A stretch of 64,000 bases of DNA, taken from the NCBI GenBank assembly GCA_001818315.1, contig MHKF01000010.1, forward strand, positions 3,853-67,852, in the 5' to 3' direction. Position numbers and translations under genes: made by a program. Under the pieces are notes generated by a model. It was given only the letters and a program-made list of their open reading frames with translations, searched no databases and was not told where the DNA came from. Every line of letters starts with the position of its first letter. The first letter of the stretch is position 1. Positions 29,583 through 53,363 of the stretch are shown in pieces. The DNA comes from Candidatus Kerfeldbacteria bacterium RIFCSPLOWO2_02_FULL_42_19 (GTDB taxonomy: Bacteria > Patescibacteriota > Patescibacteriia > HO2-48-17).

Positions 29583-31426
29583 TCTCAGAGCCATTGTGTG
29601 ATATCACCACAAGAGCTTCTTACCCCACACTCTGCGCAAAATCCGTCCACTTCACACCAATTTCATTTTTGCCTAGCGATGTGCTGTAAGAAAAACTACT
29701 GCTGAAAAACCGGCTATTTGACAATTTAATCAACGCATGAAAATGCAATTATAGACCGAATCTCTTCTCGTACACAATCATAATCACGACATTACGAAGT
29801 GTTTATGATTCAACAAGCAAGAGCATATGGTGGATGCCTAGACATGCAAAGCCGATGAAGGACGTAGCAGCCTGCGATAAGCTTCGGGGAGGTGGCAAGC
29901 AACCTTTGATCCGAAGATCTCCGAATGGGGAAACCCTTCCGATAGAAGATCGGAAATCATGCACTGAATTCATAGGTGCATGAGGACAACCTAGTGAATT
30001 GAAACATCTTAGTAGCTAGAGGAAAAGAAAGAAATTATCAATACTTTTCTATAAGATTGGCGCACGCCAAAAGCGAATGCGCTCCTTATAGAAAGGTATT
30101 GCGATTCCCTGAGTAGTGGCGAACGAAAAGGGAGCAGCAAAAACCTTTACAACGTACTCTAACTTCGTGTTAGGGAGAGAAGTGATACGCTGCTGTTATA
30201 AAGGTGTTGTGAGAGACTTACGTTTGGAGCGTATTGATCCAAGATAGAGTTTAACAAACAAAATACTTAGAAGAACGCCGTGGAAAACGGAGGCCATAGA
30301 AGGTGACAGCCCTGTATTTAAAAAGTGTTTTGTACTCTATGGTAGGTATTCTCGAGTACCATGGGACACGTGAAATCCTATGGGAAGCCAGGTCGACTAT
30401 GACCTAATGCTCAATACTTTGCATGATCGATAGTGAACCAGTACCGTGAGGGAAAGGTGAAAAGCACCCCGGAAGGGGGATGAAATAGTATCTGAAACCA
30501 TATGCTTACAGAACGTTGGAGGGCTATGCCTCGCAAGAGGAATGCCTCACAGCGTGCCTATTGAAGAATGAGCCAGTGAGTTCGTAGGTAGAGTTCGAAT
30601 AAGTCCTACGGGACGTATTCAGAGTGAAAGCGAGCGTTAAAAGCGCGATCATCATTAATAATGCGCAAGCGAGTTGGTTACTCAGTTTACTGAGTGATCG
30701 CACATTCGCCAGCGCTTATTGGTGATACGATTCTACTTACGAGACCCGAAGCCGTGCGACCTACCCATGACCAGGGTGAACCCCGATGAAGATCGGGGGG
30801 AGGCCCGAACCCGTGAGCCGTGCAAAACTCTGGGATGAGTTGTGGGTAGCGGAGAAATTCCAATCGAGCTCGGCGATAGCTGGTTCTCCTCGAAATAGCT
30901 TTAGGGCTAGCCTTGTTAATTCCCCTTTGGAGGTAGAGCACTGGATGGGTTGGGGTGGCTTTTTGCCTACTCAATCTAACCAAACTCCGAATGCCAAAGG
31001 ATGTTATAACAGGAGTCAGACCGTGAGGGCCAAGCTTCACAGGTCAAAAGGGAAACAGCCCAGATCGCCATCTAAGGTCCCAAAATTGAGGTTAAGTGGA
31101 GAAGGTAGTGCTATGGCTTATACAACTAGGAGGTTGGCTTAGAAGCAGCCATCCTTTAAAGAAAGCGTAACAGCTCACTAGTCGAGTCATTGCGCGCCGA
31201 AGATGTAACGGGGCTCAAACCTCGTACCGAAGATGCGACTTCGGTATGCGAAAGCATACTGAGGGGTAGAGGAGCATTCTGTATCCGATGAAGTCGTACC
31301 GAAAGGAACGGTGGAGGATACAGAAGAGAGAATGCTGGTATGAGTAACAAAAAGACAGGTGAAAACCCTGTCCACCGTAAACCCAAGGTTTCCTGGGCAA
31401 CGCAAATCGTCCCAGGGTGAGTCGAT

Positions 31427-31460
<34 letters not shown>

Positions 31461-31961
31461 GAGCAGGTTAATATTCCTGCACTACCGTGCTGTTGTTTCA
31501 CCAGACGCATATTCCAATTCTGAACATTATTTGGCTACTGATGTCTCAGTGTTTCACGCAAGTGGAACATCGAGCGAGGGAGAGTGGAAACACAATCCCA
31601 AGTCAGAAGTAAGATGTGCCAAGAAAAAAAGTGAAACGCGTGCAGTGCGGTAATCGTACCGGAAACCGACACAGGTGGGTGGGTGCGAAATGCACTCAGG
31701 TGTACGAGAGAACCTTCGTTTAGGAACTAGGCAATACAACGGCCGTAACTTAGGGATAAGGCCTGCCCGATCGCCGAAAGGCAATTGGGCCGCAGCGAAA
31801 GACCTCAAGCGACTGTTTATCAAAAACACAGCTCCCTGCTAAACCGTAAGGTGATGTATAGGGGGTGATGCCTGGCCAGTGTCCGAACGTTAAGGGGAGG
31901 GGTGCAAGCCTCGAACCGAAGCGCGGATGAACGCCGGCGATAACTATAATCGTCCTAAGGT

Positions 31962-32662
31962 TAAACGCTTTTTAGCTAAAATAAGCAAAAGAGTGTTTAA
32001 GGACTGGGACGATTATATATCAAACGCTGCCTCGTTTTGCAGCAATGTAAAATGGTCAAAAAAAATGTGGCTATATGCTGGAAAATCTTATAAAATACTA
32101 GGGTTAGAATAAACCATAGTTATGAAATGAGATAATCAGCAGGAAAGGCCAGAAGTAATTGGATGGATTACCGGATTTGTAGATGGTGAAGGATGCTTTT
32201 CAGTAAGTATCATCCGGAACCAAACGACAAAGCTCGGTTGGCAAGTATTTCCTGAATTCGTCGTAACACAAGGAGAAAAAAGTAAAAATCATTGAATCTA
32301 CTCAAAAATTACTTCGGATGTGGAAGTATATATAGAAACCGAAGACATGATAACCACACAGAAGATCTCCTTAAATACTGCGTACGATCACAAAAAGAAA
32401 TAAGGAAAAAGATCATCCCCTTCTTCGATAAAAATTCACTCAGAACAGCAAAAGCAAATGACTTTAGGAAATTCAAAAAAATCCTAGAGCTCATGGAAAA
32501 GAATGAACATAAGAATATGAAGGGTTTAAAAAAAATTGCCATCATCATTCAAACGATGAATCGAAAAATCCCATCAAAACTACTGGAATCCTCAGAGACT
32601 ACACGCCATACCCCTTCTGTTAAGAAGGGTGAAGATATAGTCCGGACTCCAAAGGAAGTCAG
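31962..32662 (+). mobile_element. group I intron in 23S, at the position equivalent to E. coli 1917, with a degenerate LAGLIDADG homing endonuclease ORF
   Basis: Exon junction cctaaggU | ... G | agcgaaattcc restores the conserved 23S sequence. Internal ORF pieces contain ITGFVDGEGCF (LAGLIDADG motif 1) and LLKNYFGCGSIY, but there is no start codon and a frameshift lies between them. Confidence 0.7.
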
Positions 32663-32684
32663 AGCGAAATTCCTTGTCGGGTAA
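32131..32684 (+). pseudogene. LAGLIDADG homing endonuclease remnant inside the intron
   Basis: Two frames are needed: ...GWITGFVDGEGCFSVSIIRNQ...QGEKSKNH* and then MNLLKNYFGCGSIYRNRRHD... The first segment has no initiation codon. Confidence 0.55.
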
Positions 32685-33216
32685 GTTCCGACGTGCACGA
32701 ATGGCATAACGACTTGAGGACTGTCTCAACGAGGGACTCGGTGAAATTGCATGGCCCGTGAAGATGCGGGCAACCCGCAGCTGGACGGAAAGACCCCGTG
32801 GAGCTTTACTACAGCTTGGCATTGATTTAGGATTGCGTTTGTTCAGTATAAGTGGGAGACTCTGAAGTCCCGACGCTAGTTGGGATGGAGTCGCCAATGA
32901 GATACCACTCTTATGCGATTTTAATTCTAACTCCTACCCGTGAATCCGGGGGGAGGACAGTGTCTGGTGGGTAGTTTGACTGGGGCGGTGGCCTCATAAA
33001 GAGTAACTGAGGCGTTCACAAAGGTTGGCTACTCCGGGATGGAAATCCGGAGGATAGTGCAAAGGCAAAAGCCAGCTTTACTGCAAGGGGAACATCCCGC
33101 GCAGTCACGAAAGTGGGACTTAGTGATCCGACCGTTACGAGTTTTAAGTACGCAAGTACTTGGGACTCTCGATATAGGACGGCGGAAGCTCAACGGATAA
33201 AAGTTACCCCGGGGAT

Positions 33217-33496
33217 ACATACTCTGTGTCCCTTTCATTCGGTAACGAATGGAAATAGTATACGGCTAATAACGGTGAAGCTCTCTTCGCATACATCGAA
33301 TGCGAAAGAGTAATACCGTGGGAAGTCCTCCGACACCATGTCAGAGTGACCCCGTATCGACTGAGAGCGAGAAACAATACAGCAATAGAGCTCGAGATTC
33401 TGGTTAAATCCCAGAATAATACGCCGTACTCCCGATAAAAATCGGGATGAAGATATAGTCAGTGCCTTAAGGAAACTTAAGGAAGAAAATAACACG
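33217..33496 (+). mobile_element. second, ORF-less group I-like intron in 23S, at the position equivalent to E. coli 2449 (peptidyl-transferase loop)
   Basis: Removing 33217..33496 restores ccccggggaU | aacaggctg, the conserved GGGGAUAACAGGCUG. The 5' exon ends in U and the insert ends in G. Confidence 0.55.
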
Positions 33497-33536
33497 AACA
33501 GGCTGGTAGCGCCCAAGCGTCCATAGCGACGGCGCT

Positions 33537-33571
<35 letters not shown>

Positions 33572-33607
33572 CGGTGCAGAAGCTGCCAAGGGTTTGGCTG
33601 TTCGCCA

Positions 33608-33642
<35 letters not shown>

Positions 33643-34143
33643 CGAGACAGTTCGGTCCCCTATCCGCTGTGGGCGTTGAAACTTGAGAAGGCTCTTCCTC
33701 AGTACGAGAGGACCAGGAAGAACAGACCTCCCGTGTATCGGTTGTCCTGCCAAGGGCATTGCCGAGTAGCGACGTCTGGTTAAGATAAACGCTGAAAGCA
33801 TCTAAGCGTGAAGCTGTCTTCAAGATAAGGTTTCGTTTGAGGTCCCCGGAAGACTACCGGGTTGATAGGCTCTACGTAGAAGCGCGGTAACGCGTGAAGC
33901 GAAGGAGTACTAATAGACCGATGTTGAATCATATTCACTTTGTGGTGTTGTGAAACACCCTTCGAGAAGAGATTAACAGCATTTTCATGCGCAAAAATAT
34001 TTCGTATTCCATGGCACTCCGACTTGTGTCCACTTTCATAGTTATTGGTATTCTCACGACGCTCATTCTACTCACAACAGAAACAACTATCGCGGGACTC
34101 TAGGAACCCAGAGTGGAAGTCACTATCCAAAGTGACTCTTACT

Positions 34144-34251
34144 CTGGTGCTTCTAGCGACGGGGAAACACCTGTTCCCATCCCGAACACAGCCGTTAAGC
34201 CCGCCAGCGCCGATGATAGTGCCACAAGCGTGAAAGTAGGTCAGTGCCAGG
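34144..34251 (+). rRNA. rrf: 5S rRNA
   Basis: cccatcccgaacacag, gccgatgatagtg, and terminal helix ctggtgc/gtgccag. About 210 nt downstream of the 23S. Confidence 0.8.
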
Positions 34252-34261
34252 ATTATCAAGA

Positions 34262-37035: not shown

Positions 37036-37935
37036 ATGACAAAAATCCGCAAAGCTATTATTCCTGCTGCCGGAATGGGCACGCGCTTTTTACCAGCAAC
37101 CAAAGCCCAACCCAAAGAAATGCTTCCAGTCGTCGACAAACCTATCATTCAATATGTTGTTGAGGAAGCAGTTGCCTCCGGCATAGAAGACATTATCATT
37201 GTCACCGGATGGCACAAACGAAGTATTGAAGATCATTTCGATCATTCGTTCGAACTCGAACAACATCTGAAGCAAGCTGGAAAAATCGAACAACTCAAAG
37301 AAATACGGCGCATTGCGAACATGGCAAATTTCATTTATATACGCCAAAAAGGGCCATACGGAAACGGAACACCGGTGCTCTCTGCACGACATCTGGTTGA
37401 AGATGAACCCTTTGCAGTGTTGTGGGGTGATGAGTTCATCTATTCACATCCACCGCGATTGAAGCAGATCATAGATGTATACGAAAAATATGAGATGCCG
37501 GTCATCAGCGGCGTCAAGATAGAAAAAAAAGAATTGCTATCAAACTACGGCATCGCTGAAACCCAAACGTTAGAGCCCGGGATACACAGAATCGTCAGTA
37601 TTGTTGAAAAACCAAAACCAGAGCAAGCTCCTTCGAATCTCGCGGTGCATGGCGCCTATATCCTCACACCGGAAATTTTAGATATCCTCTCCGAAACAAA
37701 ACCTGGTAAAGGCAATGAAATCTGGCTGATCGACGCACTCAATACATACATGAAAAGCAAAACAATTCTCGCGAGAGAAATTCAGGATGGAAAATACTAC
37801 GATACCGGTAACAAACTCGAATACCTCAAAGCAAATATCGATTTTGCGCTAGAACGAAAAGAATTGCGAAAACCACTACTCAGCTACATGAAGCAAAAAA
37901 TGAGAGAAAACGGACATAAGATAATTCCAGCATAG
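37036..37935 (+). CDS. galU: UTP--glucose-1-phosphate uridylyltransferase
   Basis: KAIIPAAGMGTRFLPATKAQPKEMLPVVDKPIIQY signature N-terminus; about 299 aa. Confidence 0.9.
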   Translation: MTKIRKAIIPAAGMGTRFLPATKAQPKEMLPVVDKPIIQYVVEEAVASGIEDIIIVTGWHKRSIEDHFDHSFELEQHLKQAGKIEQLKEIRRIANMANFIYIRQKGPYGNGTPVLSARHLVEDEPFAVLWGDEFIYSHPPRLKQIIDVYEKYEMPVISGVKIEKKELLSNYGIAETQTLEPGIHRIVSIVEKPKPEQAPSNLAVHGAYILTPEILDILSETKPGKGNEIWLIDALNTYMKSKTILAREIQDGKYYDTGNKLEYLKANIDFALERKELRKPLLSYMKQKMRENGHKIIPA

Positions 37936-37945
37936 CATAAGCCCT

Positions 37946-39379
37946 ATGTTCACTCGAAAACAAAATCTGCAAAAAAATACAGTAAGTCCAAAATATAAAG
38001 TGCGTCGCAAACACATCATACGCATACTCACATATGGAACACTCACGAGTCTGCTTGTGATAGTATTTGCAGGATGCGGAGAACGAATAACGCCTCCAGA
38101 AAAAGTTGAATTAGAATACTGGGGCGTGTGGAATGAAAAAAGCGAAATCCAAAAAATTATTACCGACTTCAATGCGAAGTACTCGCATATCAGTATCAAA
38201 TATCGCAAGCTTCGCTACGAAGAATATCAAGATCTGCTACTCACTGGTTGGGCGCAAGACAAGGGACCAGATATCTTTGCCATACAAAATTCCTGGGTAG
38301 GAGCATACAAAAACTTCATAGAGCCGATGCCGCAAAGCATGACGGTGAAACGGAAATACATTAAAGAAAGTTTTGCTGGCGCAAAAAAAGATGAAGTTGT
38401 GGAAGAAGTAAAAATTCCAGGATACGACGCACGAACACTCAATCAAAAATTCGTTCAAGTTATGGTGGACGACGCGGTCATTAATAACCAAATCTACGGT
38501 CTTCCACTCAGTATCGATACTCTTGCCATGTACTATAACCGAGATCTCCTCTCGCAAGCGCAAATCACGCAACCTCCTACACTTTGGTCAGAATTTATAG
38601 AGATCATCCCTCGATTAACTCTTCTCGACCAAGATGGAAATATTATCCGATCTGGTGCTGCGATGGGCGCTACACAGAATGTAGATCGTGCGGTAGATAT
38701 TCTTGCGAATCTCATGCTGCAAAACGGAACAAATATTGTAGAAGAAAAGAGAGTTGTGCTTACACAGGAATCGGCAACACAGAAGGGATACTACCCCGGA
38801 CCACGAGCACTTGAATTCTATACTGACTTTGCAGTACCAACCAAACAAGTGTATACGTGGAACGAAAATATGCCAAATTCATTAGAAGCCTTTGCACAAG
38901 GACGAGTCGCATTCTTTTTTGGTTACGCCTATCACCTTCCACTCGTCCAAGCGCAAGCGCAGGGAATCAACTTTGACATCGTAAAATTCCCGCAAATTGA
39001 TACAAATCGGACTGTGAACTTTGCCAATTATTGGATTGAAACTGTAGCAAAAAAAAGTGAGCACCAGAACGAAGCATGGGCTTTTCTACAATTTGCAACG
39101 GATGAGGAAAATGTGATTCCTTTTCTAGAGAAAAGTAAAAAACCAACAGCCTTGTTATCGCTCATTACATCACAAGTAAGTGAAAATCCGATTCTTTCAC
39201 CTTTTATCATTCAAGGCCTGACGGCAAAAAGTTGGTATAGCGGACGCAAACCAGTTGAAGCTGAAGCAGCGCTTGAAAACGCTATCCAAAAAATTCTTGC
39301 CAAGGACGTGCCTGAGGAAGGCGACCCCTATGCAAAGGTGCTCCAAGACGTAGCAAAAAAAATTCAGGGAACACTATGA
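37946..39379 (+). CDS. ABC transporter substrate-binding lipoprotein (sugar-type, family 1-like)
   Basis: Lipobox VFAGC; size and composition of extracellular solute-binding proteins. Confidence 0.6.
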   Translation: MFTRKQNLQKNTVSPKYKVRRKHIIRILTYGTLTSLLVIVFAGCGERITPPEKVELEYWGVWNEKSEIQKIITDFNAKYSHISIKYRKLRYEEYQDLLLTGWAQDKGPDIFAIQNSWVGAYKNFIEPMPQSMTVKRKYIKESFAGAKKDEVVEEVKIPGYDARTLNQKFVQVMVDDAVINNQIYGLPLSIDTLAMYYNRDLLSQAQITQPPTLWSEFIEIIPRLTLLDQDGNIIRSGAAMGATQNVDRAVDILANLMLQNGTNIVEEKRVVLTQESATQKGYYPGPRALEFYTDFAVPTKQVYTWNENMPNSLEAFAQGRVAFFFGYAYHLPLVQAQAQGINFDIVKFPQIDTNRTVNFANYWIETVAKKSEHQNEAWAFLQFATDEENVIPFLEKSKKPTALLSLITSQVSENPILSPFIIQGLTAKSWYSGRKPVEAEAALENAIQKILAKDVPEEGDPYAKVLQDVAKKIQGTL

Positions 39380-39888
39380 CACGCCTAGCAAATCCACAAC
39401 CAAATATCCTCAAGAGTTGCAGAAGGTTTACACTCATACTCATCGTGCTCGGGATTCTCACATTCACAATACCTTTTGCTGTGAAAGCGCAAGGAATTCT
39501 TCCCGAATGTGCACTTACACAACAAGATCCTGCCACAGCATGCGGTTATTGTGATTTTATTAAACTCGCTGTGAACGTATCGCGCCTGGGACTTGGAATT
39601 CTTGGCGGCGTAACCCTTGCCTTCTTCGGTTGGGGTGGACTCATGTTGCTTTTATCCGCCGGCAACAGAGAAAAAATAAACAAAGGCTGGCAAATTCTGC
39701 TTGGTGCGATGATGGGGCTTGCGATCGTCGTACTTGCATGGACAATGGTAAACTTTATCGTGTGGGCACTTGTAAGTGGAGAAATAAACACGATCGGCGA
39801 TGTAAAAATTTTTCCAACTGATGCCAATCTCAACTGGTGGGAAGGGCATTGCACTCAAAATGCCAATACTCCAACACCTCAACCATAA
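39376..39888 (+). CDS. TrbC/VirB2-like (T4SS-pilin-like) small membrane protein, paralog 1
   Basis: Shared motif LAFFGWGGLMLLLSAGNREKINKGWQILLGAMMGLAIVVLAW; two TM segments. Confidence 0.55.
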   Translation: MTRLANPQPNILKSCRRFTLILIVLGILTFTIPFAVKAQGILPECALTQQDPATACGYCDFIKLAVNVSRLGLGILGGVTLAFFGWGGLMLLLSAGNREKINKGWQILLGAMMGLAIVVLAWTMVNFIVWALVSGEINTIGDVKIFPTDANLNWWEGHCTQNANTPTPQP

Positions 39889-39919
39889 AATACATTGTAA
39901 ATAAAGTGTTTTTTATCTT

Positions 39920-40288
39920 ATGCTACATCAATATATGAAGAAGGCGAACAAAAAAAAATATACATTTTTGACTACTCTTATATTACTCGGGGTCTTAGGA
40001 CCTTTATTCCTCTCGGCACAGGGACTACCGAATCCACTTGGTGAAGTAACGGACCCGAATGAAATTATTGTGAATGTGATTAAGGCGTTTTTGGGCGTCC
40101 TCGGTGTCCTTGCACTTGTCATCTTTATTTATGGAGGGTTGTTGCTGCTGATTTCTGGAGGGAATACAGAAATGCTCTCAAAAGGGAAGAGAACACTTGT
40201 GTGGGCAATTATTGGCCTTGCTATTATTCTGAGTAGTTACGGAATACTCAAATTCGTCTTTGAAAAACTCATTACTTCCACGAGTTAA
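39920..40288 (+). CDS. TrbC/VirB2-like small membrane protein, paralog 2
   Basis: IFIYGGLLLLISGGNTEMLSKGKRTLVWAIIGLAIILSSYGI. Confidence 0.55.
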   Translation: MLHQYMKKANKKKYTFLTTLILLGVLGPLFLSAQGLPNPLGEVTDPNEIIVNVIKAFLGVLGVLALVIFIYGGLLLLISGGNTEMLSKGKRTLVWAIIGLAIILSSYGILKFVFEKLITSTS

Positions 40289-40326
40289 AAATAAATTTCG
40301 GTTTAAATCTTTCTCCTGTTGTCAAG

Positions 40327-40412
40327 AGAAGCGCGGTAATGGATCTTATACCTTTCGAAGCACTCACACTGCACAGTGTGCTGAGAAAGGTATAAGATCC
40401 ATTACCGCGCTT
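40327..40412. repeat. long palindrome (29-bp perfect arms, 28-nt structured centre), same family as 22176..22253
   Basis: gaagcgcggtaatggatcttatacctttc / gaaaggtataagatccattaccgcgcttc; the centre is ...ttcgaagcactcacactgcacagtgtgctga. Confidence 0.8.
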
Positions 40413-40451
40413 CTTACATTATGGAAAAATTATCACGCAAAAAGTCTATTG

Positions 40452-40859
40452 CTACGTCGTGGCTTTCACAATTTGATCGAATACATATTTGGCGATTCCA
40501 TAGGAAGCCATCACAATCGCAAGACCGATAACTGCCAAAACCAATCGATCACGCGCTTGGCGCATTTTTTCGGAGTTACCGCCAGAAAGCATCCAAGAAA
40601 ATCCAGCCCAAATAATCATTACGAGTGTTATAAGTCCTAAAACGCTCAACACAACACTCACAATCTTGAGAGTCACAACAACTGGAGAAGCACCGCCAAG
40701 ACCAGTCTCTGTTAAAACTGGCGACAAGGTAGGAGGGGCAGCAGACACATCATTCGTGCCACTCACAATACTGAACACGACAATAATGATGGAAAAAATC
40801 GTTGCAAGTGAAACGAAATGCCGCGGCATTGTACGTATGCGTTGTATTACGTCAAACAT
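40452..40859 (-). CDS. TrbC/VirB2-like small membrane protein, paralog 3
   Basis: MIIWAGFSWMLSGGNSEKMRQARDRLVLAVIGLAIVMASYGI. Confidence 0.55.
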   Translation of the reverse strand: MFDVIQRIRTMPRHFVSLATIFSIIIVVFSIVSGTNDVSAAPPTLSPVLTETGLGGASPVVVTLKIVSVVLSVLGLITLVMIIWAGFSWMLSGGNSEKMRQARDRLVLAVIGLAIVMASYGIAKYVFDQIVKATT

Positions 40860-40881
40860 AAAACAAAAAAATTTATAAATC

Positions 40882-41283
40882 TCAACTGCGATAGATACGC
40901 TGTATGAAAGTTGTTGCGCCAGTTGCTTTGTTCAGTTCGTTAAATACATAACTCACAATACCGTATGCTGCCATAATAATGGCAAGACCAGTAATAGCTG
41001 CAACAAGGATATCACGCGCATGTCGGAGTCGCTCGGAACTTCCAGCAGAAAACAACCACATAAATCCACCCCAGAGAATCATAACCACAGCAATGAGTCC
41101 GACAAGAGTCAAAACCAATTGAACAATTCTTAACACAACCACATCAGGTGTTAAAGTTCCAAGTTTTGCTTCATCTACAAGGATTTTCTTTATACTCGTA
41201 TTAGGATCAAAAGCCACAGCATAGGTAGCATGCAAATCTACAAAAGAAAATAAAAGAGTCATGACAAAAAATACAAAGCACAT
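40882..41283 (-). CDS. TrbC/VirB2-like small membrane protein, paralog 4
   Basis: Start placed at internal Met MCFVFFVMTLLFSFV (signal-like); the track ORF extends to 41595. Motif VMILWGGFMWLFSAGSSERLRHARDILVAAITGLAIIMAAYGI. Confidence 0.5.
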   Translation of the reverse strand: MCFVFFVMTLLFSFVDLHATYAVAFDPNTSIKKILVDEAKLGTLTPDVVVLRIVQLVLTLVGLIAVVMILWGGFMWLFSAGSSERLRHARDILVAAITGLAIIMAAYGIVSYVFNELNKATGATTFIQRIYRS

Positions 41284-41658
41284 GCGCTTGAAAAAATAAT
41301 GCGATGAAGTCATAAAGTTTAATAAAAAGTAATTAGATTTATTATACAACGTTTCTTTCAATCCGTAAAAGACACCTCGCACACTCCGATTCCGCATAAT
41401 GGGTCTGTCGCCGAATGCGCTTTCGCCTGTGAAATCGTAAAATTTCGTGACAGAATCGCTGAATAAATTTTGAGGTTTATATGGAATATAAGCTGAAAAA
41501 TTTTGAAGCGATTCTGGCCGAAATGCTACGATTGCAACAGAAATGGTATTCGGCGACAGACCCATATAGGTAAAATAACAAAAATTTGCTTGCAAAGTTA
41601 AAATATGCTATAGTCAAAAGTGACTTTAAAATTACAAGAAAGGAGGTGAAACCTCATT

Positions 41659-42030
41659 ATGACTAAACTCTTGGTAAGAGCTTCACAAATCGGTGCTGCC
41701 GTGAGTGTTTTGCTTCTTCCTGCAGCAGCGCGAGCACAGCTTACGATCGACCCATCATACGCCGGAACATTCAACCTTGGCAGTGGTTCTCCAGTAGCTA
41801 TCGTGATCGGTATCGTAAACTGGGCATTAGGACTTCTCGCGCTCGTTGCAGTAGTACTCGTGCTTATCGGTGGATTCATGTGGATGACTGCCGCTGGTAA
41901 TGAAGAAAAAGTTGATAAAGCGAAGAAGATCCTTTCCGCAGCTATTATTGGTTTGGTGATTATCCTTGCTGCTTGGGGTATTACGATCTACGCGATCAAC
42001 GTACTTGGTACAGCAACTGGTTCAGTATAA
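41659..42030 (+). CDS. TrbC/VirB2-like small membrane protein, paralog 5
   Basis: Strong SD aaaggaggtga. VLVLIGGFMWMTAAGNEEKVDKAKKILSAAIIGLVIILAAWGI. Confidence 0.55.
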   Translation: MTKLLVRASQIGAAVSVLLLPAAARAQLTIDPSYAGTFNLGSGSPVAIVIGIVNWALGLLALVAVVLVLIGGFMWMTAAGNEEKVDKAKKILSAAIIGLVIILAAWGITIYAINVLGTATGSV

Positions 42031-42140
42031 TATATTCAAATTTGGAAAAAAGAAAGACTCCCGTTCGCGGGGGTCTTTTTTTCAACAATAACTCATACTC
42101 AGTTTGTGCGGATACAAAGGCTGATGTTACACTCATTGAT

Positions 42141-44222
42141 ATGCAAACCGCGACGATACGAGCATATCCAAAAATCAAAGCATGGTTTCAAACACACTCG
42201 GTGTGGATAGTCCTCACACTTACACTGACATACGCACTAATATTCATCGTATTCGCAATATGGAAATACATAAATTTTCACTACGATGCACTCGATCTTG
42301 CGATCTATAATCAAGTTTTTTGGAACACAGCACACGGCAAACTCTTCGGGCTCACCATTCATCCGCATTCCTATCTTGGTGATCACATCGAATTAACACT
42401 CCTGCTCTTTGCGCCATTCTATACGATTTTTCAACATCCGATAACGCTCCTGATCATACAAACACTCTGGATTGCGAGTGCAGCGATTCCTCTTTTTTGG
42501 ATCGCACAAAAAATACTCAACAAACTCTGGGCTTTACTTTTTACTGCAGCATATCTTGCCAATGCTTTCATTCATAATATCAATACTTTCGAATTCCATA
42601 TGCTCCCGCTCGCACTGCCACTCCTTTTTATACTGTACTGGGCTTATGAAAAAAAAAATTTTCGAATCTATCTCCTCGCGATTATTTTACTCATATTCAC
42701 CAGGGAAGACATCGCGCTCGTGACGTTCTTTTTTGGTTTCCTACCTCTCCTTGAAAAAAAACAAAAACGATGGTGGTTGATGCCTATGATACTGAGCGCA
42801 CTCTGGTTTCCGATAGCGCTCAAAATCACGACACTCGCGAGCGGTTATGAACAGTATAAATTTGCATACTATTACGGTTGGCTTGGAACAACGCCACAAG
42901 CAATCATACAAACGTTTTTTACCGAACCAACGAAAGTGCTTTCCTATGTCTTCCAAGTCGGAAATACATTTTTTCTTATCACGATCCTCCTTGCTTTTGC
43001 GCTTCTTCCGCTCTTCAAAATGAAGTATCTCATTCCAACGATTCCTATTTTGGCCCAATTTCTTTTGCTCGGAAAAGGCTCAGGTTCCATCATTCTCGAG
43101 ACACACTATCTCACACTCATCATTCCATGGTTTTTTATCAGTATCATACACGTTGTGAAAGAATGGCAAATGCAACCAAAGCCCTCACAGATGTGGCCGA
43201 TCAAACGCTGGGTGTTACAAAAACTCCGAAGCGAGCCGAGTATTGCAATTCCAATCATTATAACCATTTTCATCTATACTTTTTTCACTATGAGTCCACT
43301 TCCGTCAGCAGCACAAACGTTCGTACGTGAAATCAGAAATCCAAATCCAAAAAAAGCAATACAAGACGATCTCCTAAAAAACATCAGGCCAACCGATGTT
43401 GTTGTATCGAGCTATAATACGCTTACACACCTTTCCTCGCGAAACACCGTCTATTCTCTTCATTATCTTTGGACAGGAAAAAAACAACTCTCGGATGAAC
43501 CGTACTGGATTAACACACCTGTAGATACGCTCTATTACGACAGTGAAAATTTCCTGGAATATTACTTTCATTGGAAAAAGAATGCGGGATTTGAAAACTT
43601 TTTTGATCAGGGCGACAATCGCATGCGCGCTTTTCTGAGCGAACAGAAACTTGTACCATCAACAGTGATTGATGATATCATCGTTTTCCGGCGTGCAGAA
43701 AATGCACAAGCAGATGAAATCTCCGTAAAAAATAATAAGCGCTCAGTGGAACCGCAAAACATATACACCCTCTATCAAAATATTCCAAAGATGAAAAAAA
43801 CTGTTGATCGAAAACTTTCCGATGAAATCACCCTCCTTGGTTGGAATCGTCTCAATCAGGCACACCGGCTCCCCTACAAAACGATAAGCAGATCTCTTAT
43901 ATGGCGAGTTGAAAAAACTCCAGAAAACACGCCCTTTTTGCGACTCCAAGTCAGAAATCCAAAAAAGCAAATCCTCTATCAAAAATTTTACGCCCTTGGC
44001 TATGGAGTATTACCGCCCACTGAATGGAAACAAGGTGATATTATTGCAACCAACTACTGGTTTGTAATTCCAGAAAATTTTATACAATCCGGCAACATAG
44101 TGACTATTAACTTAGAAAACTTTGAGAGCGGCACTTTTACGCTTGACGGTCTTCGTTCTGCGAATATTACAGAAATGAAAACAAAACCAACGGGACCGGC
44201 CGTACCGATAGCTCGTTTTTAA
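42141..44222 (+). CDS. large polytopic membrane protein, DUF2079-like (putative GT-C-type glycosyltransferase)
   Basis: Start moved to ATG 42141 to avoid overlap with the upstream pilin gene. YDALDLAIYNQVFWN resembles the DUF2079 signature; many TM helices, then a soluble C-terminal domain. Confidence 0.45.
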   Translation: MQTATIRAYPKIKAWFQTHSVWIVLTLTLTYALIFIVFAIWKYINFHYDALDLAIYNQVFWNTAHGKLFGLTIHPHSYLGDHIELTLLLFAPFYTIFQHPITLLIIQTLWIASAAIPLFWIAQKILNKLWALLFTAAYLANAFIHNINTFEFHMLPLALPLLFILYWAYEKKNFRIYLLAIILLIFTREDIALVTFFFGFLPLLEKKQKRWWLMPMILSALWFPIALKITTLASGYEQYKFAYYYGWLGTTPQAIIQTFFTEPTKVLSYVFQVGNTFFLITILLAFALLPLFKMKYLIPTIPILAQFLLLGKGSGSIILETHYLTLIIPWFFISIIHVVKEWQMQPKPSQMWPIKRWVLQKLRSEPSIAIPIIITIFIYTFFTMSPLPSAAQTFVREIRNPNPKKAIQDDLLKNIRPTDVVVSSYNTLTHLSSRNTVYSLHYLWTGKKQLSDEPYWINTPVDTLYYDSENFLEYYFHWKKNAGFENFFDQGDNRMRAFLSEQKLVPSTVIDDIIVFRRAENAQADEISVKNNKRSVEPQNIYTLYQNIPKMKKTVDRKLSDEITLLGWNRLNQAHRLPYKTISRSLIWRVEKTPENTPFLRLQVRNPKKQILYQKFYALGYGVLPPTEWKQGDIIATNYWFVIPENFIQSGNIVTINLENFESGTFTLDGLRSANITEMKTKPTGPAVPIARF

Positions 44223-44228: not shown

Positions 44229-45488
44229 ATGGACATACCGAAGAGTATCAAAAAGACACTATGGAATCCAGACGCTGTGATCATTATGACGATGACGTTA
44301 CTCTTTGGAATACTTGCTTTCTTCTACAACACAAAGCATACGTATAACGAACAGTTTGTGTGGCTTGCGGAGAGTTTTCTCAAAGGACAACTGTATCTTG
44401 CGGAACCAATCAAACGTTTTATAGATCTTGCGTTGGTGGATGGAAAATTCTTCTGGCATCTGCCGCCGCTTCCTGCGATACTCCTCGTGCCATTCGTATG
44501 GTTTTGGAAAATATTGCATGTGCCAATCTATCAATGGTATCTCAATATACCGTTCAGCGTGGGGGTGTTCGTGTTATGCTTTAAAATCGCAAAAAGATTC
44601 GCATTTTCTTGGACTGACGCACTGTACCTTGCAAACGCATTCTTATTTGCTTCTGTGTATCATCAGATTGCCTTTCTGAGTTGGAGTTGGTATCTCTCAC
44701 AGAGTCTCACAGCATTTTTGATGTTCCTCGCGCTCTACGAATTTTTTACAAGAAAACGCTGGGGTTTGATTGGAATTATATTCGCGGCTCTCCTTATGAC
44801 ACGGCCGACGGCGGTGCTCGGAATCATCTTTTTTCTTGCTGGCATCATTTTTAACACGATCGATGAGGAACTTCCGCATATCGCTCATCACATGACACAT
44901 CACTCAAAATTACGCTCCATCATCCAACTCATTCTCCCCTGTTTCTTTACTATTCCCTTGCTGCTTGCCTATAACCAAGCGCGATTTGGAAGCTACTGGG
45001 AATCCGGATATGCGCTCACGAATAACTTCGCGAATCCGGCAAATACTTCGTACCAACTCTTTAGTCTCAGTAACATTCCAACAAATTTCTCTGCATACTT
45101 TTTGAGCGCCCCTAAAATGATATTGGAAAAACTTAAACAAGGGGTAGACGGAATATCCTCATTCCGATTACCGCGACTCAAAGTCGAACACCCGGGAGTC
45201 AGCTTCTTTGTTGTTTCGCCTATTTTTCTTTGGCTCTTACGAGCTCAATGGCGTAAACGCCTCGTACGTCTCGCACTCCTGCCGATACTCATACTCCTAC
45301 CGACCTTACTCGCTTTCTGGGGCCCGGGTTGGAATCAAATCGGTCCGCGCTATACGCTTGACTTCCTCCCGTTTGCGTGGGTGATACTGCTTTTCGCTTT
45401 TCCGCAACAAAAACTCAGCAAGAGCGCAAAAATACTCATCGTGCTGAGCAGTTACTTCAATTTTTTTCTTCTCGCAACGACGTACTAA
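44229..45488 (+). CDS. polytopic membrane protein, GT-C-like
   Basis: More than 10 predicted hydrophobic helices; adjacent to and co-oriented with the DUF2079-like gene. Confidence 0.4.
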   Translation: MDIPKSIKKTLWNPDAVIIMTMTLLFGILAFFYNTKHTYNEQFVWLAESFLKGQLYLAEPIKRFIDLALVDGKFFWHLPPLPAILLVPFVWFWKILHVPIYQWYLNIPFSVGVFVLCFKIAKRFAFSWTDALYLANAFLFASVYHQIAFLSWSWYLSQSLTAFLMFLALYEFFTRKRWGLIGIIFAALLMTRPTAVLGIIFFLAGIIFNTIDEELPHIAHHMTHHSKLRSIIQLILPCFFTIPLLLAYNQARFGSYWESGYALTNNFANPANTSYQLFSLSNIPTNFSAYFLSAPKMILEKLKQGVDGISSFRLPRLKVEHPGVSFFVVSPIFLWLLRAQWRKRLVRLALLPILILLPTLLAFWGPGWNQIGPRYTLDFLPFAWVILLFAFPQQKLSKSAKILIVLSSYFNFFLLATTY

Positions 45489-47066
45489 CTACCGCTCCTC
45501 ATGATACTCAACTTCAGTATTCACGCGCCAAAGCGCGTCTTTCGATATTACTCCGTCAACAATACTATCAACCGCCGTCATCGCTGCAAGCATCGAATGA
45601 TCTTGATTATTGTAACGGTGCATGCCATTGCGACCGATAGAAAAAAGATTTGCAAAACGATCAAGATACGTGCGAATCACAGAAAAACGATCGTAGCTCC
45701 CAAAATAAGCAGGATAGGCTTTAGGAACGCGAACGACGCAACCGTCAAGGACATCAGCTGCATCAATAAACCCAAGCTTTGCGAGTTCGGCAGTGGCAAA
45801 TTTTAAAAAGGCTTGATCGCTTTTACGCCACAACTCGTCGCCTTCATTACAAAAATATTCCAGCCCAAGCCATACGGTGTTAGGGTCTTGCACAAGATAG
45901 GGGCTCCAGTTATTCCAAATCTGAATCCGACCGAGACGCACATCCTTTTCCTGAACATATATCCAATTATCGGTCATGAGACGTCCGTATTCAGCAAAAC
46001 GTAATTTTCGTACAAGCAGCCCAACACTCATAAAATCGCGATAGCAAAGTGACGCAGCGACATCACGAACTTCTGAAGGGACTACCGCTCCAAGTCCAGC
46101 AATAAGTGACTGCACGGGCATTGTAGAAAAAAAATAATCCCCTTTCTGCCACCACGTTTTTCCCGTACGTTTATCGCGAATGTGCGCAGCAAAAATGTTT
46201 CGACCGTCGTGCCGAAAAGCAATAACGCTATGCTGTAAAAAAATACTTCCGCCGCGGCATTCAATGGCACGCGCAACCTCCTGCCACATTTGCCCTGGTC
46301 CAAACTTCGGATACAAAAAATACTCAATAAGACTCGTCTCACTAGACTTTTGTGAAAGCGAAGCTGTGCGTTTTGGCAAAAATTTTTGCAGAGCATGCCC
46401 AAGCGCTTTACTAATAGACACTCCTTTCACACGCTGTCTCCCCCACGCGGCGGATATTTCTTTACACGAAACGCCCCACACTTTTTCTGTATAGTCCTTA
46501 AAAAAAGTCAGATAGAGCACACGGCCGAAACGATTGATAAAAAAATCTTCAAGCGAAGTTTCTGGACGTCTCGGAAAAAAACGAGCGCGAATATAACTCA
46601 AAAGTATATGTACAACACGCAAAAGGCCGAGCCTGCGAAGCGTTGTAAAATTGAGCGAAAGTGGATAATCAAAAAAATTCCGAAGAAAAAAAATGCGCGA
46701 TTTGCGTTTCCGAATTAACATGACGCGATCTGAAATTGCCGGATCTGGTCCATCGGGGGATACTTGCACCGCGCGACTGCGATGTTGATACGAAATGTTG
46801 ATGCGCTCAGTTTCAATCCCGGATCGCTTGAATGAATCAGCGCTCTGTAAAGGAAGAATATTCAACCACCAATGCATTACACGGTCGGATTTGGAAAAAA
46901 ACCGATGACCGCCAATATCCATCCGATTGCCTTTATAATGAACCGTCCGAGCAAGTCCGCCGACTTTATCGTCTAATTCAAAAATAATTGGCTTGGTGGA
47001 TGTGCGTTCCAAAAGTTCATACGCTGCAGTGAGTCCAGCAGGCCCAGCTCCAATAATAATAGCCAT
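45489..47066 (-). CDS. FAD/NAD(P)-binding oxidoreductase (amine-oxidase / UDP-galactopyranose-mutase-like fold)
   Basis: [18 protein letters not shown] dinucleotide-binding motif at the chosen start. Confidence 0.65.
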
Positions 47067-47086
47067 CTGTTGTGAAATATGATTCT

Positions 47087-47779
47087 TCATACACGACACT
47101 GTTCAAAACCGTACGCATATTTTGAAAATTTGGAGAGCCTTGCGGTAAAATACTGTGTGATTGACGAAACTTCTTCATCGTAAGCAGGAGCGTACTTCAA
47201 TTCCAAAATCACGAATGTTCCAAGAGATGAAGTTGAACGTGCTGGAGTGTCCCTCAAAATAATAGAGTTAGAAAGCTGATCATCAATTGTGATGCGAAAC
47301 TTACGATCAGCTGATATAAAGTATCGACGAAAATAGTGATTCGAAAGTACCGGCTTAAGTGTCTGCAGCGTATAAGCAAGTGACGTTGGAACCTCGGAAG
47401 CTTTGATATGTGCAAAAAAATCTCGAGAAAAAAGCATTGGAAGTTCAAACGGCGGCAATGGATAAACGACTTTCCTTGTCAAAAATCCATACTTATACTT
47501 CACCTCTAAAGCAGCATGTATCATATACGTATTGTGATCACCATACCAACGCACACGCACCTTAGAGCGATTCGCGACTCCGTCCACCGTATCAGAAACG
47601 AATTGAAAACTCAAGGTATCAAAATAGACATTGCTGACGAACCGCGCTGGATACAGTGACCGAAACATTGCTGGATGCGTACGTAAAACTTGTTCAAGCT
47701 CCGGCGCGATACGAGGCACAATAAATTTTCGTTCGAAACGCCACGTGTCATGCATATCATTTCTTGTGCAACGAATCAT
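47087..47779 (-). CDS. VTC/CYTH-like domain protein
   Basis: N-terminal WRFERKFIV (ExExK-type CYTH signature); about 230 aa. Confidence 0.45.
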
Positions 47780-48950
47780 CCTTACACCGCCACCAATATC
47801 GTAAAATACGATGACTCAAAAATACCGCAAAACAAAAGAGCAAAACGCCAAAAAAAATACCGAAAATCAACGCGACGAAAGTATACAGATTGAAAAATAA
47901 ATCTCGAAAAAACGAGCGAAGATTCTGCGGTTGTTGTAAAAACCAATAAGGATCCGTGGGCGAAGAAGGATTGGGATACTGTCTACGGTACCAATCAAGC
48001 CAAAAGTCTGTCGTATAGGTCGAAATATCATACGTCGGATTTTCGCTGAGAGAAATCGGTTGAAATGCCGGTTCCCCTTGTGTCGGTAAAGTCACACGAA
48101 GCGCTAGATCGGTCGCATCCTCGCGAAGTCCAAGCGTAAAAAAATGCATGCCCGGCCGTGGGCCCGCCTCATGTACCAGAGGAAATAAATAATCACCGGC
48201 GAACCAAAGGACAGATTTTGAACGAGGTAATTGAAGAAGCGCGGGAAGGAGCGTATCTGAAAATTCTTTTTGGACTGCGTCGCGCTCAGTTTGTGAACCA
48301 GCAAAATACTGACTGTTCCAGAGAACCTTGTGCGAAAAAAGAACAAGAAAACGAACGTCATCCGACTGCGCGAGACGAATACTTTCAAAAAACATTTGTT
48401 TTTGTTCACCGATAAGAAGCCCATGATCAAGTTCACCGTCGAGTACTACAAAAAGTGCGTCTCCTCGCTGAAACGTAAAAAATGTTTTACCAAAACGCTC
48501 AGTATAGACTTCTCTATTCTGGAGTTCGTGATTACCAACAGCATTAAACACGGGTCGGGAAAGAGCATTAAGAAACGATGAAGCAAGAAGTCGAAATTGC
48601 TTTTCATTTGCTTTATGCACGATATCCCCAAGGAGCATTACGAAATCAATATCAGGATCAGCGAAAACTTTCTGATTCGCAAGCAATGTCACAGCAGGGT
48701 ATTCACTATAAGGCAAAGTCGTATTTTCTAAGCGGCCGTACACATGCCCGACAGCAACAAAAATAACATCACCGGTTTCTTCGTCGAAACGTATGCCGTT
48801 CAAAGAAGGTACTGCTTGAGCGCGTGCACTCTGAAAATCGACAACGAAAAAAAAGAAAAGGCTTAAAACGAAAAAAAATGACTGCAAACAACGCTGCAAC
48901 ATGCCTCGACAACGCAACACAAAAAAAAGTCTGCGAAAACTATTTATCAT
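47757..48950 (-). CDS. calcineurin-like metallophosphoesterase with signal peptide and C-terminal TM anchor
   Basis: GDIVH and GNHE phosphoesterase motifs; hydrophobic N- and C-termini. Confidence 0.6.
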   Translation of the reverse strand: MINSFRRLFFVLRCRGMLQRCLQSFFFVLSLFFFFVVDFQSARAQAVPSLNGIRFDEETGDVIFVAVGHVYGRLENTTLPYSEYPAVTLLANQKVFADPDIDFVMLLGDIVHKANEKQFRLLASSFLNALSRPVFNAVGNHELQNREVYTERFGKTFFTFQRGDALFVVLDGELDHGLLIGEQKQMFFESIRLAQSDDVRFLVLFSHKVLWNSQYFAGSQTERDAVQKEFSDTLLPALLQLPRSKSVLWFAGDYLFPLVHEAGPRPGMHFFTLGLREDATDLALRVTLPTQGEPAFQPISLSENPTYDISTYTTDFWLDWYRRQYPNPSSPTDPYWFLQQPQNLRSFFRDLFFNLYTFVALIFGIFFGVLLFCFAVFLSHRILRYWWRCKDDSLHKK

Positions 48951-51564: not shown

Positions 51565-52241
51565 GAAAGCAAACCTTGATGATCAAGAAACGTCACCTGC
51601 AGAGAAGCATCGAATGCCTGAAGCGCACGCTTGAGTGATTCCACATGAGCAAAATCAGAAAATCCAACAAAAAAGAGCGCCTCGAGTCCTTGTTGGGATT
51701 CATCAAAACGCCGAAGCGACAGCATTGTGGTATGTTTTTGGAGAATCTCTGTGATACGTTGCAGGCTATCGGGTTTCGATCGAGAAGTATGAATTGCAAG
51801 CGAAAGATGCGGCTGTTCGGAACGCTTGTATTGACCGCGTGCTATCAAAAGTAAAATAATCACAACAAAAGCAAACAACGTGATGAGCCACTGATCAGCG
51901 CCAAACCCAAGTCCAATAGCAATCACAAAAAAAAGATACGCAAGTTCTTCAGGTTCTTTGATTGCCGCACGAAAACGCACAATGGAAAGTGCGCCTACAA
52001 GTCCCAAAGAAAGCGCCAAAGACGACTTGACGACAGAAATAATCAAAAGAGTCGCAAGGCCAATTAAGACAAAATTGTGCGCAAAAGCAACGCGATTGGA
52101 AAGCGCGCGACCAAAACGTATATATACTTTCCCAAGTAAAAAACAGAGAAGTGCAACCGCAAGGAGGTACACAAAAAATCGTAATGGAGCGATGTTCCCG
52201 CTCGTCATAAAAAACTGTTGAAGGGTGTCAGATGTTGGCAT
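51561..52241 (-). CDS. DUF4956-like membrane protein
   Basis: Four TM segments and a VRFRAAIKEP motif; sits next to CotH-like and VTC-like genes. Confidence 0.45.
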   Translation of the reverse strand: MPTSDTLQQFFMTSGNIAPLRFFVYLLAVALLCFLLGKVYIRFGRALSNRVAFAHNFVLIGLATLLIISVVKSSLALSLGLVGALSIVRFRAAIKEPEELAYLFFVIAIGLGFGADQWLITLFAFVVIILLLIARGQYKRSEQPHLSLAIHTSRSKPDSLQRITEILQKHTTMLSLRRFDESQQGLEALFFVGFSDFAHVESLKRALQAFDASLQVTFLDHQGLLS

Positions 52242-52301
52242 ACATACAATAGAAAAATAACGGGGATTCAGGTAGAATTATTCTATCGTATACCATCTAA
52301 T

Positions 52302-53363
52302 ATGTCGATACAAAACATAAAAATAATGAAAATATGGCTTGAAAGAAAGGATACAATCACACAAGCATTCGTGATTGTGTCAGTGTATGCAATACTCTCC
52401 TTCATCAATCTCCGCAGTAAGCTCGCTAGCACCCCAGCGTGGTTCAATGGAATGTTAAGCGAAAATCATGAACTCCTCCTACAAAGTGTCTACACGAATA
52501 ACGAACAATCGCGCATACTCCAATACCTGATTCCTGAATTTTTACATCGCCTCTTCAATATTGCCATAGAACATGCGTATATCTTCCAACGTTGGTTTTT
52601 TATTTTCCTTGCTTTCTGCTTCTTTCATATCTATCTTAAAAAATGGTTTCACGAAACAACTGCATTTGCTGGCGTGACACTCCTCGCAGCTCTCATGCCA
52701 CTCGTGTACTTTAATCATCTCCAAGAAAGTGCACCGCTTATGCTCCTCACATTTCTGTTGGGGCTCTGGGCAATACGCGAAAGAAAACACCGACTTTTTT
52801 TGTTCATCCTCATCATCGGAATTCTAAACAATGAAACTTCCCTCATCCTCATACTTGCTTATTTCGCTTATCAACTTCCGCAACGTCTCAAAGATCTGAC
52901 TTACCTATCACTTACAAAAATACTCGGCAAAACATTTCTCGTGAGTCTTCCAGCAACGATCGTGCTTGTAAGTATACGCTGGTTAACAAGAGAGAATCCT
53001 CATCTCGGCACGCCGTGGAAGCTCCCCTACAATGTTGTTGGTATGCTGAGTAATCTGACCAACCTCAATATTTTCGAACTTCATCGTGCAGTATATCTTT
53101 ATCCGATTTTCCTCTTCGGCCTCTTGTGGATTTATAGCTTTCTCCACTTCAAATCAAAACCGCTATTTCTCAGACGCGCGACCTTCCTTATCCCATTCTT
53201 TATTGCGGGCAACATGCTGACGGGAAATATCTACGAAGCGCGACAAATGCTTCCTTTGGGTTTTATTATTATTCCTCTGGCGCTATGGAATCTGTTTCCA
53301 CGCGATACACATGCACCGACGCATTCTCATACACTAACGAAAGCCACGAAGGAAGTGGATTGA
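52302..53363 (+). CDS. polytopic membrane protein, unknown function
   Basis: Multiple hydrophobic helices; start moved to internal Met to avoid overlap. The 3' end overlaps the convergent gene by about 95 nt. Confidence 0.35.
   Translation: MSIQNIKIMKIWLERKDTITQAFVIVSVYAILSFINLRSKLASTPAWFNGMLSENHELLLQSVYTNNEQSRILQYLIPEFLHRLFNIAIEHAYIFQRWFFIFLAFCFFHIYLKKWFHETTAFAGVTLLAALMPLVYFNHLQESAPLMLLTFLLGLWAIRERKHRLFLFILIIGILNNETSLILILAYFAYQLPQRLKDLTYLSLTKILGKTFLVSLPATIVLVSIRWLTRENPHLGTPWKLPYNVVGMLSNLTNLNIFELHRAVYLYPIFLFGLLWIYSFLHFKSKPLFLRRATFLIPFFIAGNMLTGNIYEARQMLPLGFIIIPLALWNLFPRDTHAPTHSHTLTKATKEVD

Follow-up and report, generated by a model that had tools for sequence, protein, structure and literature searches.

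We consider it probable, at roughly 60%, that five adjacent genes (p1-p5) of a Kerfeldbacterium form a conserved T4SS_pilin module and encode the subunits of a surface filament or conduit that depends on a type IV secretion system (T4SS). These genes lie in a 64,000-nucleotide (nt) stretch of contig MHKF01000010.1 from Candidatus Kerfeldbacteria bacterium RIFCSPLOWO2_02_FULL_42_19 (assembly GCA_001818315.1), which was analysed at its full length and is called the window below. They are preceded by genes for a GalU-type enzyme and a solute-binding protein (SBP), and are followed by a gene for a DUF2079 membrane protein. The mechanism that we propose would build on four observations: the family membership of the five proteins, their topology, the conserved architecture of such arrays and their linkage to the SBP. 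An earlier account of this DNA, the sequence-only reading, had placed five open reading frames (ORFs) at 39376-42030 in the order + + - - +, and this is exactly where we find them; its description as "alternating orientation" overstates what is a two-gene inverted block within a plus-strand array. The five genes are as follows.

39376-39888, plus strand: p1, 170 amino acids (aa); VirB2-like and putatively SBP-coupled; its N-terminal region contains Cys and its C-terminus is extended by 45 aa; PF18895 30.9 bits
39920-40288, plus strand: p2, 122 aa; short VirB2/TrbC-like protein; PF18895 42.1 bits, PF04956 32.1 bits
40452-40859, minus strand: p3, 135 aa; accessory pilin of the inverted block; PF18895 39.8 bits
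40882-41313, minus strand: p4, 143 aa; accessory pilin of the inverted block; PF18895 36.7 bits
41659-42030, plus strand: p5, 123 aa; most conserved pilin; PF18895 46.3 bits

All five proteins scored above the curated gathering threshold of PF18895 T4SS_pilin (26.6 bits), with E values of 3e-7 to 5e-12, p1 by only 4 bits, and p2 also passed the threshold of PF04956 TrbC/VirB2 (27.9 bits), below which the other four remained. The PF18895 matches are beyond chance. Four of the five proteins further matched NF045849, a pilin-like family of Mycoplasma integrative and conjugative elements (ICEs), at scores that stayed below its membership cut-off of 40 bits (p5, the best, 34.5; p2 28.8; p3 25.1). 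A word-indexed search returned 569 homologues of p5, the nearest outside its own species being 61% identical; their source names were "pilin" or "VirB2 component", and homologues in the hundreds carried the same two Pfam families, PF18895/PF04956. Pairwise identity among the five paralogues is 23-45%, p3 and p4 being the closest pair (about 46%, 105 bits), and a hidden Markov model (HMM) of the five proteins found no sixth copy in a six-frame translation of the window. The locus thus presents the features of a Patescibacterial VirB2 array, that is, five adjacent PF18895 genes of low inter-copy identity in a genome of class ABY1. The sequence-only assignment to TrbC/VirB2-like T4SS pilins in a genome of the Candidate Phyla Radiation was therefore borne out by the profile search, and the literature on Patescibacterial VirB2 arrays agrees with it. 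For p4 we use the ATG at 41313 (MTSSHYFF), although its ORF could be extended upstream as far as a TTG at 41595 (237 aa) and a 227-aa form was chosen by public gene callers; we prefer the short form because in the long ORF the pilin HMM has no match before about residue 98 and because a promoter-like site lies between a 167-nt hairpin, listed below, and this ATG.

The proteins share a common layout: after a basic N-terminus comes a hydrophobic, signal-like segment that ends in A-x-A, followed by a variable stretch rich in Ser, Thr, Pro and Gly and then by two long hydrophobic helices. Hydropathy analysis gave three hydrophobic segments in each of the five, with the A-x-A after the first. The proteins vary in the mature N-terminus and in the C-terminal tail; in p1-type proteins the C-terminal extensions contained no Pfam domain. 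All five carry the motif [AG]-G-[FL]-x-[WL]-[ML]-x-[SAT]-[AG]-G-[NS]-x-E-[KRM]. The signature G-G-(F/L)-x-W-M-x-(S/A)-A-G-N-x-E-K that had been proposed for them is real as a motif but degenerate, and in its exact form is found in p5 only. An AlphaFold2 model of p5 (39 homologues; mean predicted local distance difference test score 80) places a signal helix at residues 2-24, then a disordered linker and a helical hairpin (45-76 and 82-120), and in this model the motif spans the end of helix 1, a 5-residue polar loop and the start of helix 2. When the p5 profile was compared with PDB sequences, the sole match was A. tumefaciens VirB2, in register just past the signal peptide, with an E value of 5.7 that is too weak to count.

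To compare arrays between species, we assembled two sets of loci. Species-representative genomes scanned with a p5-family alignment gave 80 loci, mostly of ABY1 (Kerfeld-, Falkow-, Magasanik- and Uhrbacteria), and two more from exact look-up brought this p5-seeded set to 82; for the SBP-seeded set, metagenome contigs were scanned with an alignment of 30 SBP orthologues, which gave 71 loci with at least 400 bp downstream. The p5-seeded loci were annotated with the HMM of the five window pilins and with the window's neighbouring proteins. At least two pilin genes were present in 63 of the 82 p5-seeded loci, with a maximum of 11. In 21 arrays of the Kerfeld type, the SBP-proximal pilin best matched p1 in 19 (with variable C-terminal extensions, the ORFs having 190-685 codons), the second pilin best matched p2 in 19, and the last one, before DUF2079, best matched p5 without exception (21 of 21, identity 43-65%). 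A minimal form, SBP-p1-p2-p5-DUF2079 only, was seen in six arrays. The interval between p2 and p5 held 0-8 extra copies, usually on the opposite strand and matching p3, p4 and p5 about equally; p3 and p4 are part of this copy-number-variable block, and the accessory block alone turns over between species. The + + - - + pattern was seen in 13 of 63 p5-seeded arrays and in none of 48 SBP-seeded arrays, and this positional comparison identifies it as a lineage trait. Across ten relatives, identity was 46-62% for p5, 42-55% for p2, 30-37% for p1 (the most divergent), 33-56% for the SBP and 27-40% for DUF2079, so that the conservation of p5 exceeds that of the SBP and DUF2079 and is similar to that of GalU.

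Two further kinds of locus were encountered during these comparisons. Loci of a Falkowbacteria type (L054, L057, L059, L065, L066 and similar ones) carry genes for SMC, a ComM-like Mg-chelatase ATPase, an SBP and one pilin, followed after a gap of ~4.5 kb by a p5-type gene and 5-7 pilins, all on one strand; the genes in the gap were considered and set aside as unrelated to the module (a helix-turn-helix protein, a methyltransferase and a family-2 glycosyltransferase, GT2). Other Patescibacteria have giant ORFs of ~1,800-3,450 codons with an N-terminal p5-type pilin domain (L028, L033, L048, L077, L083, L087, L052 and L055), in which the pilin match starts near position 10000 of each locus; the one of L083 also has TIG and Big_5 immunoglobulin-like domains. 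Such proteins may be pilin-anchored and adhesin-like.

Expression signals set p5 apart from the other pilin genes. It has a strong Shine-Dalgarno (SD) sequence (AAGGAGGTGA, 41640-41649), whereas the leader of p1, whose ATG overlaps the SBP stop codon (ATGA), has a weak one (AGGGA), and the leaders of p2, p3 and p4, read directly, are A/T-rich and carry no SD. Of the "strong SDs" ascribed to the array, only that of p5 is one. The following signals and hairpins were located in the array.

41575-41604, plus strand: promoter-like site of p5, ATAACA-18-TAAAAT, from a consensus scan (a consensus match only)
41369-41341, minus strand: promoter-like site of p4, from a consensus scan, between the 167-nt hairpin and the short p4 start
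42049-42082, plus strand: canonical intrinsic terminator after p5, with an A-tract, GC stem, TTCG loop and U-tract; fold of 42028-42085 -20.6 kcal/mol, z -5.0
40327-40414, no strand assigned: near-perfect hairpin of 88 nt between convergent p2 and p3, with 37-nt arms, 95% complementary; -68.4 kcal/mol, z -14.3
41399-41565, no strand assigned: near-perfect hairpin of 167 nt with nested inverted repeats; plus strand -88.4 kcal/mol, z -10.5; minus strand -75 kcal/mol, z -9.8

Layout and signals together point to three transcription units, SBP-p1-p2, p4-p3 and p5 alone, the last being apparently monocistronic. The 88-nt hairpin, which confirms the palindrome announced between the convergent pair, is probably a bidirectional terminator. 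The 167-nt hairpin sits exactly between the divergent p4 and p5 promoter-like sites, has ATA at both flanks, is unique in the window and is missing from the corresponding junction in relatives; it could be an insertion similar to a miniature inverted-repeat transposable element, or a regulatory cruciform. Rfam at gathering thresholds gave no match in the array region.

The 88-nt hairpin shares an apical core of ~36 nt, TTTCGAAG[C/T]AC ... ACTGCACAGTG ... GAAA, with hairpins at 22176-22253 and 59727-59822. The outer stems (~25 nt) of the three differ from locus to locus but are fully complementary, convergent genes flank two of the three hairpins, and the set has the look of a family in which the tip is conserved and the stem varies. 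Within p2, a run of nine A residues (39945-39953) lies in the signal-peptide region (N-K-K-K), and its length is constant in six assemblies.

Arrays of this kind are already known, and the locus is one more Patescibacterial VirB2 array, since a 2025 survey (Quinonero-Coronel et al. 2025, PMC12102498) that applied the same two Pfam models to 3,035 Patescibacteria genomes covers a near-identical genome and describes 441 "VirB2 arrays" of 2-11 genes, with a mean within-array identity of 25% and a maximum of 54%. The survey reports VirB2-like pilins in 1,948 VirB4-containing assemblies, near virB4 in 1,135 of them, and relaxases as mostly absent. The window matches GCA_001818735.1 and GCA_001818755.1 (Kerfeldbacteria of class ABY1, including RIFCSPHIGHO2_02_FULL_42_14) at 99.98% identity, and the identical p5 sequence occurs in contigs of these two assemblies and in Rifle aquifer metagenome scaffolds, which match the window at 99.7-100% over up to 20 kb. 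In Table S1 of the survey, both assemblies are entered as Candidatus Kerfeldbacteria, ABY1, ~1.13 Mb, with "Presence of VirB4: Yes". Elsewhere in the Patescibacteria, a pilin series inside the T4SS cluster of S. epibionticum is essential for epibiotic growth, and a 2025 review of T4SSs regards Patescibacterial T4SS pilins as forming a potential Gram-positive conjugative-type pilus, possibly a conduit.

In the mechanism that we propose, the precursors would be inserted via Sec and cleaved after A-x-A (VKA/Q, LSA/Q, VSA/A and ARA/Q, the slash marking the predicted cut), and the mature subunits with two transmembrane helices would be pulled from the membrane and polymerised by a distal MPF-FATA-like T4SS encoded elsewhere in the genome. 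On account of its conservation, its strong SD and a promoter-like site and terminator of its own, p5 is the probable major subunit; it would thus form the bulk, with p1-p4 as minor or specialised components. Among these, p1 and p2 would be specialised subunits made together with the SBP, and p3 and p4 accessory variants. The product would be a surface filament or conduit that serves host-cell contact and not conjugation.

Several points weigh against a T4SS-dependent filament. Pfam scans of the 30 other window proteins found no domain of VirB4, VirB6, a coupling protein or a relaxase, in agreement with the sequence-only reading, which had seen no VirB4, VirB6 or relaxase in the window; the scans returned cell-envelope, sugar-related and polyphosphate-related genes, a subtilase and two integrases of insertion sequence (IS) elements. 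T4SS machinery is lacking over 39 kb upstream and 22 kb downstream of the array. We also screened the 6-10 kb flanks of ~160 related loci for Walker-A ORFs of 450-1300 aa, and VirB4 was absent from them; the ATPases recovered were ComM, SMC, Der, DnaB, DnaA, ClpB, UvrA and one VirD4-like coupling protein (L079), alongside one AcrB transporter (not an ATPase) and one Lamin-tail/PKD protein. The absence of VirB4 from ~160 flanks indicates that the module is genetically detached from its machinery. The search for VirB4 and VirB6 elsewhere that had been called for has a divided outcome, with VirB4 marked "Yes" in the published table but not found in the flanks screened for it, and a VirB4 elsewhere in the genome is reported by that single source (PMC12102498, Table S1). 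A Foldseek search gave no significant match, the helical hairpin being too simple a fold for a specific search, and the probable role of p5 as major subunit is drawn from conservation and expression signals. Furthermore, a 2024 perspective calls the role of the T4SS "completely unknown" and assigns adhesion and motility to type IV pili, so that the association of such arrays with host attachment, as the sequence-only reading had it, mixed up two kinds of pilus; and pilus formation has not been seen in any Patescibacterium to date.

The VirD4-like protein just mentioned is encoded at L079 in an arrangement of its own: at 7635-10663 a single p5-type pilin gene is directly followed by the gene for the VirD4/TraG-like coupling protein, which is the sole T4SS ATPase adjoining a pilin gene in the ~160 loci.

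We next turn to the genes that flank the array in the window.

37036-37935, plus strand: GalU-type UTP-glucose-1-phosphate uridylyltransferase; PF00483 NTP_transferase, 114 bits
37946-39379, plus strand: orphan family-1 (sugar-type) SBP, predicted to be membrane-anchored, with a lipobox-like VFAGC; PF13416/PF01547 96/95 bits; its stop codon overlaps the p1 start
42141-44222, plus strand: polytopic membrane protein of family DUF2079; PF09852 185 bits; start taken at M57 of the ORF, as in two of the public gene calls

The linkage between SBP and pilin genes is near-obligate. In the p5-seeded loci, each of the 41 SBP homologues is immediately followed by a pilin gene in the same orientation, and such an SBP is present in 39 of the 49 arrays whose upstream sequence extends to 1.5 kb or more; in the reverse test, a pilin gene lies immediately 3' of the SBP in 66 of the 71 SBP-seeded loci, and slightly farther in two more. 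In 81 of 108 cases the first pilin ATG is found at -12 to +30 nt from the SBP stop; ATGA overlaps make up 15 of these, the window's included, and we infer that SBP and p1 would be translationally coupled. The nearest solved relatives of the window SBP are sugar, maltose and maltodextrin binding proteins of ATP-binding cassette (ABC) systems; no ABC permease or ATPase partner was found among the scanned window proteins, and two relatives likewise showed none within 10 kb. The immediate upstream neighbour of the SBP is a GalU homologue in 31 of 60 SBP-seeded loci and in many of the p5-seeded ones, and DUF2079 directly follows the p5-type gene in 18 p5-seeded arrays. A search for DUF2079 yielded no relative of solved structure and no mention in the papers searched; it may be a GT-C-type glycosyltransferase. 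The SBP-led plan GalU-SBP-p1-p2-inverted block-p5-DUF2079 and the three fixed pilin types appear to be undescribed as far as we searched: none of the papers searched combines Patescibacteria, a solute-binding protein and VirB2, and in its main text the 2025 survey is silent on both solute-binding proteins and gene orientation (PMC12102498).

This linkage also suggests an alternative that we regard as unlikely but deserving of weight, namely a surface device centred on the SBP that works without a T4SS. Here the VirB2-like proteins would anchor or scaffold the orphan SBP on a cell that has no periplasm, for host-glycan capture or host-surface recognition, in the manner of a bindosome. The adjacency counts and the overlapping or very short junctions just described fit this explanation, as do the sugar-type SBP without an ABC partner in the proteins and relatives searched, the lack of VirB4 near any of the ~160 loci and the recurrence of GalU and DUF2079 as neighbours, and there is a precedent for binding proteins that are assembled with pilin-like proteins (PMC3047682). 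However, the bindosome is built of type IV pilin-like proteins unrelated to VirB2, the homologous arrays of Saccharimonadia sit inside a T4SS cluster, and gene adjacency is no proof of physical interaction. Moreover, we know of no VirB2-family protein that acts without a VirB4 machine, and a VirB4 gene is, as said, reported for this very genome (PMC12102498, Table S1).

More tentative still is the idea that the ABY1 VirB2-like pilins and the SBP form one T4SS-pilus-based, bindosome-like apparatus. In this doubtful but concrete proposal, p1 would couple the SBP to the p5 filament, and the SBP would be taken to the host surface for glycan recognition or for capture preceding uptake; GalU and DUF2079 may provide for a sugar modification of the exposed, Ser/Thr-rich ends of the pilins. 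If true, the Patescibacterial T4SS pilus would gain a concrete role in nutrient or host-glycan handling.

The sequence-only reading had further suggested rapid diversification or phase-variable use of the array. Antigenic or phase variation would mean that the paralogues take turns in being expressed, for instance through inversion of the promoter region or the minus-strand block, and that the exposed surface changes with them; we find this improbable. The mixed orientation, the long palindromes at both block junctions and the range of 0-8 copies of the inverted block between species are in its favour, and the multi-copy VirB2 proteins of Anaplasma and Bartonella have been discussed in such terms (cited in PMC12102498). 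However, six assemblies from different samples are collinear and show no inversion, these being consensus sequences in which minor variants could be missed. In the five whose alignment shows no coordinate shift, neither the pilin genes nor the region of the 167-nt hairpin differs from the window, and near-identical strains show zero substitutions in the pilins; the few single-nucleotide differences between assemblies cluster in the 88-nt hairpin, which in one assembly contains an N-gap. A search for an inverted-repeat pair bracketing the minus-strand block found none, and no recombinase or invertase adjoins the array, the nearest integrases being those of IS elements 11-14 kb away. The locus thus has a single orientation in six consensus assemblies and neither the bracketing repeats nor the adjacent recombinase of an invertible locus. 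Nor are the palindromes kept at these junctions in relatives: among nine in which comparable ones were sought, only L020 has one, at the convergent junction. Against rapid diversification, orthologues of p1, p2 and p5 occupy the corresponding positions in 19-21 of 21 related arrays, and p5 is more conserved than two of its neighbours. The proportion of synonymous differences (pS) between paralogues is 0.58-0.79, and the number of synonymous substitutions per site (dS) is above 1.1 or undefined; the proposed comparison of nonsynonymous with synonymous rates (dN/dS), which we carried out, is therefore uninformative because synonymous sites are saturated. The pilin duplications are old.

That the five are generic small membrane proteins which match the pilin profiles by hydrophobic composition alone is very improbable: short profiles with many transmembrane residues, the narrow margin of p1 and the non-specific structure search speak for it, but all five exceed a curated cut-off, p2 independently exceeds a second one, the conserved motif lies in the polar loop and not in the helices alone, four of the five have sub-threshold matches to the ICE pilin-like family NF045849, and homologues with the same two Pfam families number in the hundreds.

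Elsewhere in the window, the region downstream of the array (44229-63918) is a long run of envelope genes, among them those of several polytopic membrane proteins that match no Pfam family, of a GT2 and of an LtaS-type sulfatase; in this run a CotH kinase gene adjoins the polyphosphate-related genes VTC and DUF4956. A 23S rRNA gene (29807-33932) exceeds the model length by ~1.2 kb and contains a group I intron (33207-33482) and a LAGLIDADG ORF (32292-32684); a 5S rRNA gene follows at 34143-34252. Far upstream, a 91-nt segment (3633-3723) has a 94% identical inverted copy at 6420-6507, 2.7 kb away, and the pair brackets a radical-SAM/SPASM gene (3960-5315) and an ORF (5534-6202).

T4SSs and pilin arrays are essential in the sole Patescibacterial species tested; as an array, the present locus brings nothing new. 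The arrays of ABY1 combine three anciently fixed pilin types with a variable accessory block, are detached from VirB4 and are almost always led by a dedicated sugar-type SBP. This SBP-led architecture raises testable ideas about an interaction between SBP and pilin, the ligand of the SBP and a pilus for capture or uptake, and so offers a modest handle on pilus function; moreover, the SBP provides a marker gene for finding such arrays.

Among known systems, the canonical VirB2/TrbC pilins (the A. tumefaciens T-pilin and RP4 TrbC) resemble the window pilins in being small, with a long signal peptide and a two-helix hydrophobic hairpin, but they belong to diderm conjugative or effector systems in which a single pilin gene lies inside the virB or trb operon. 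Canonical VirB2/TrbC pilins are cyclised by a dedicated peptidase. The Mbov_0395 family (NF045849) shares with the window pilins an 80-residue pilin-like module of two transmembrane helices and a monoderm MPF-FATA setting, whereas it is ICE-borne and single-copy, and the window pilins are not members of it. The VirB2 proteins of Anaplasma and Bartonella (cited in PMC12102498) are likewise tandem divergent copies in host-dependent organisms; their variation is tied to immune evasion in animals, whereas three of the five window types are position-conserved orthologues under purifying selection. Two archaeal systems offer a likeness of function, for which no homology is claimed: the Sulfolobus bindosome (Bas), in which sugar-binding proteins are assembled at the surface with small pilin-like proteins that are of the type IV pilin kind and not VirB2-like (PMC3047682), and the crenarchaeal Ced DNA-import pili, a T4SS-related machine that imports rather than exports. 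Finally, the array of S. epibionticum ML1 (SEML1_0006-0019, Wang et al. 2023) lies inside a T4SS cluster and is essential, whereas the window array is detached from any machinery, between SBP and DUF2079; the ML1 and survey arrays nevertheless share with that of the window the same PF18895/PF04956 families, a set of 2-11 adjacent divergent paralogues, a monoderm host and a reduced genome with VirB4 and no relaxase context.

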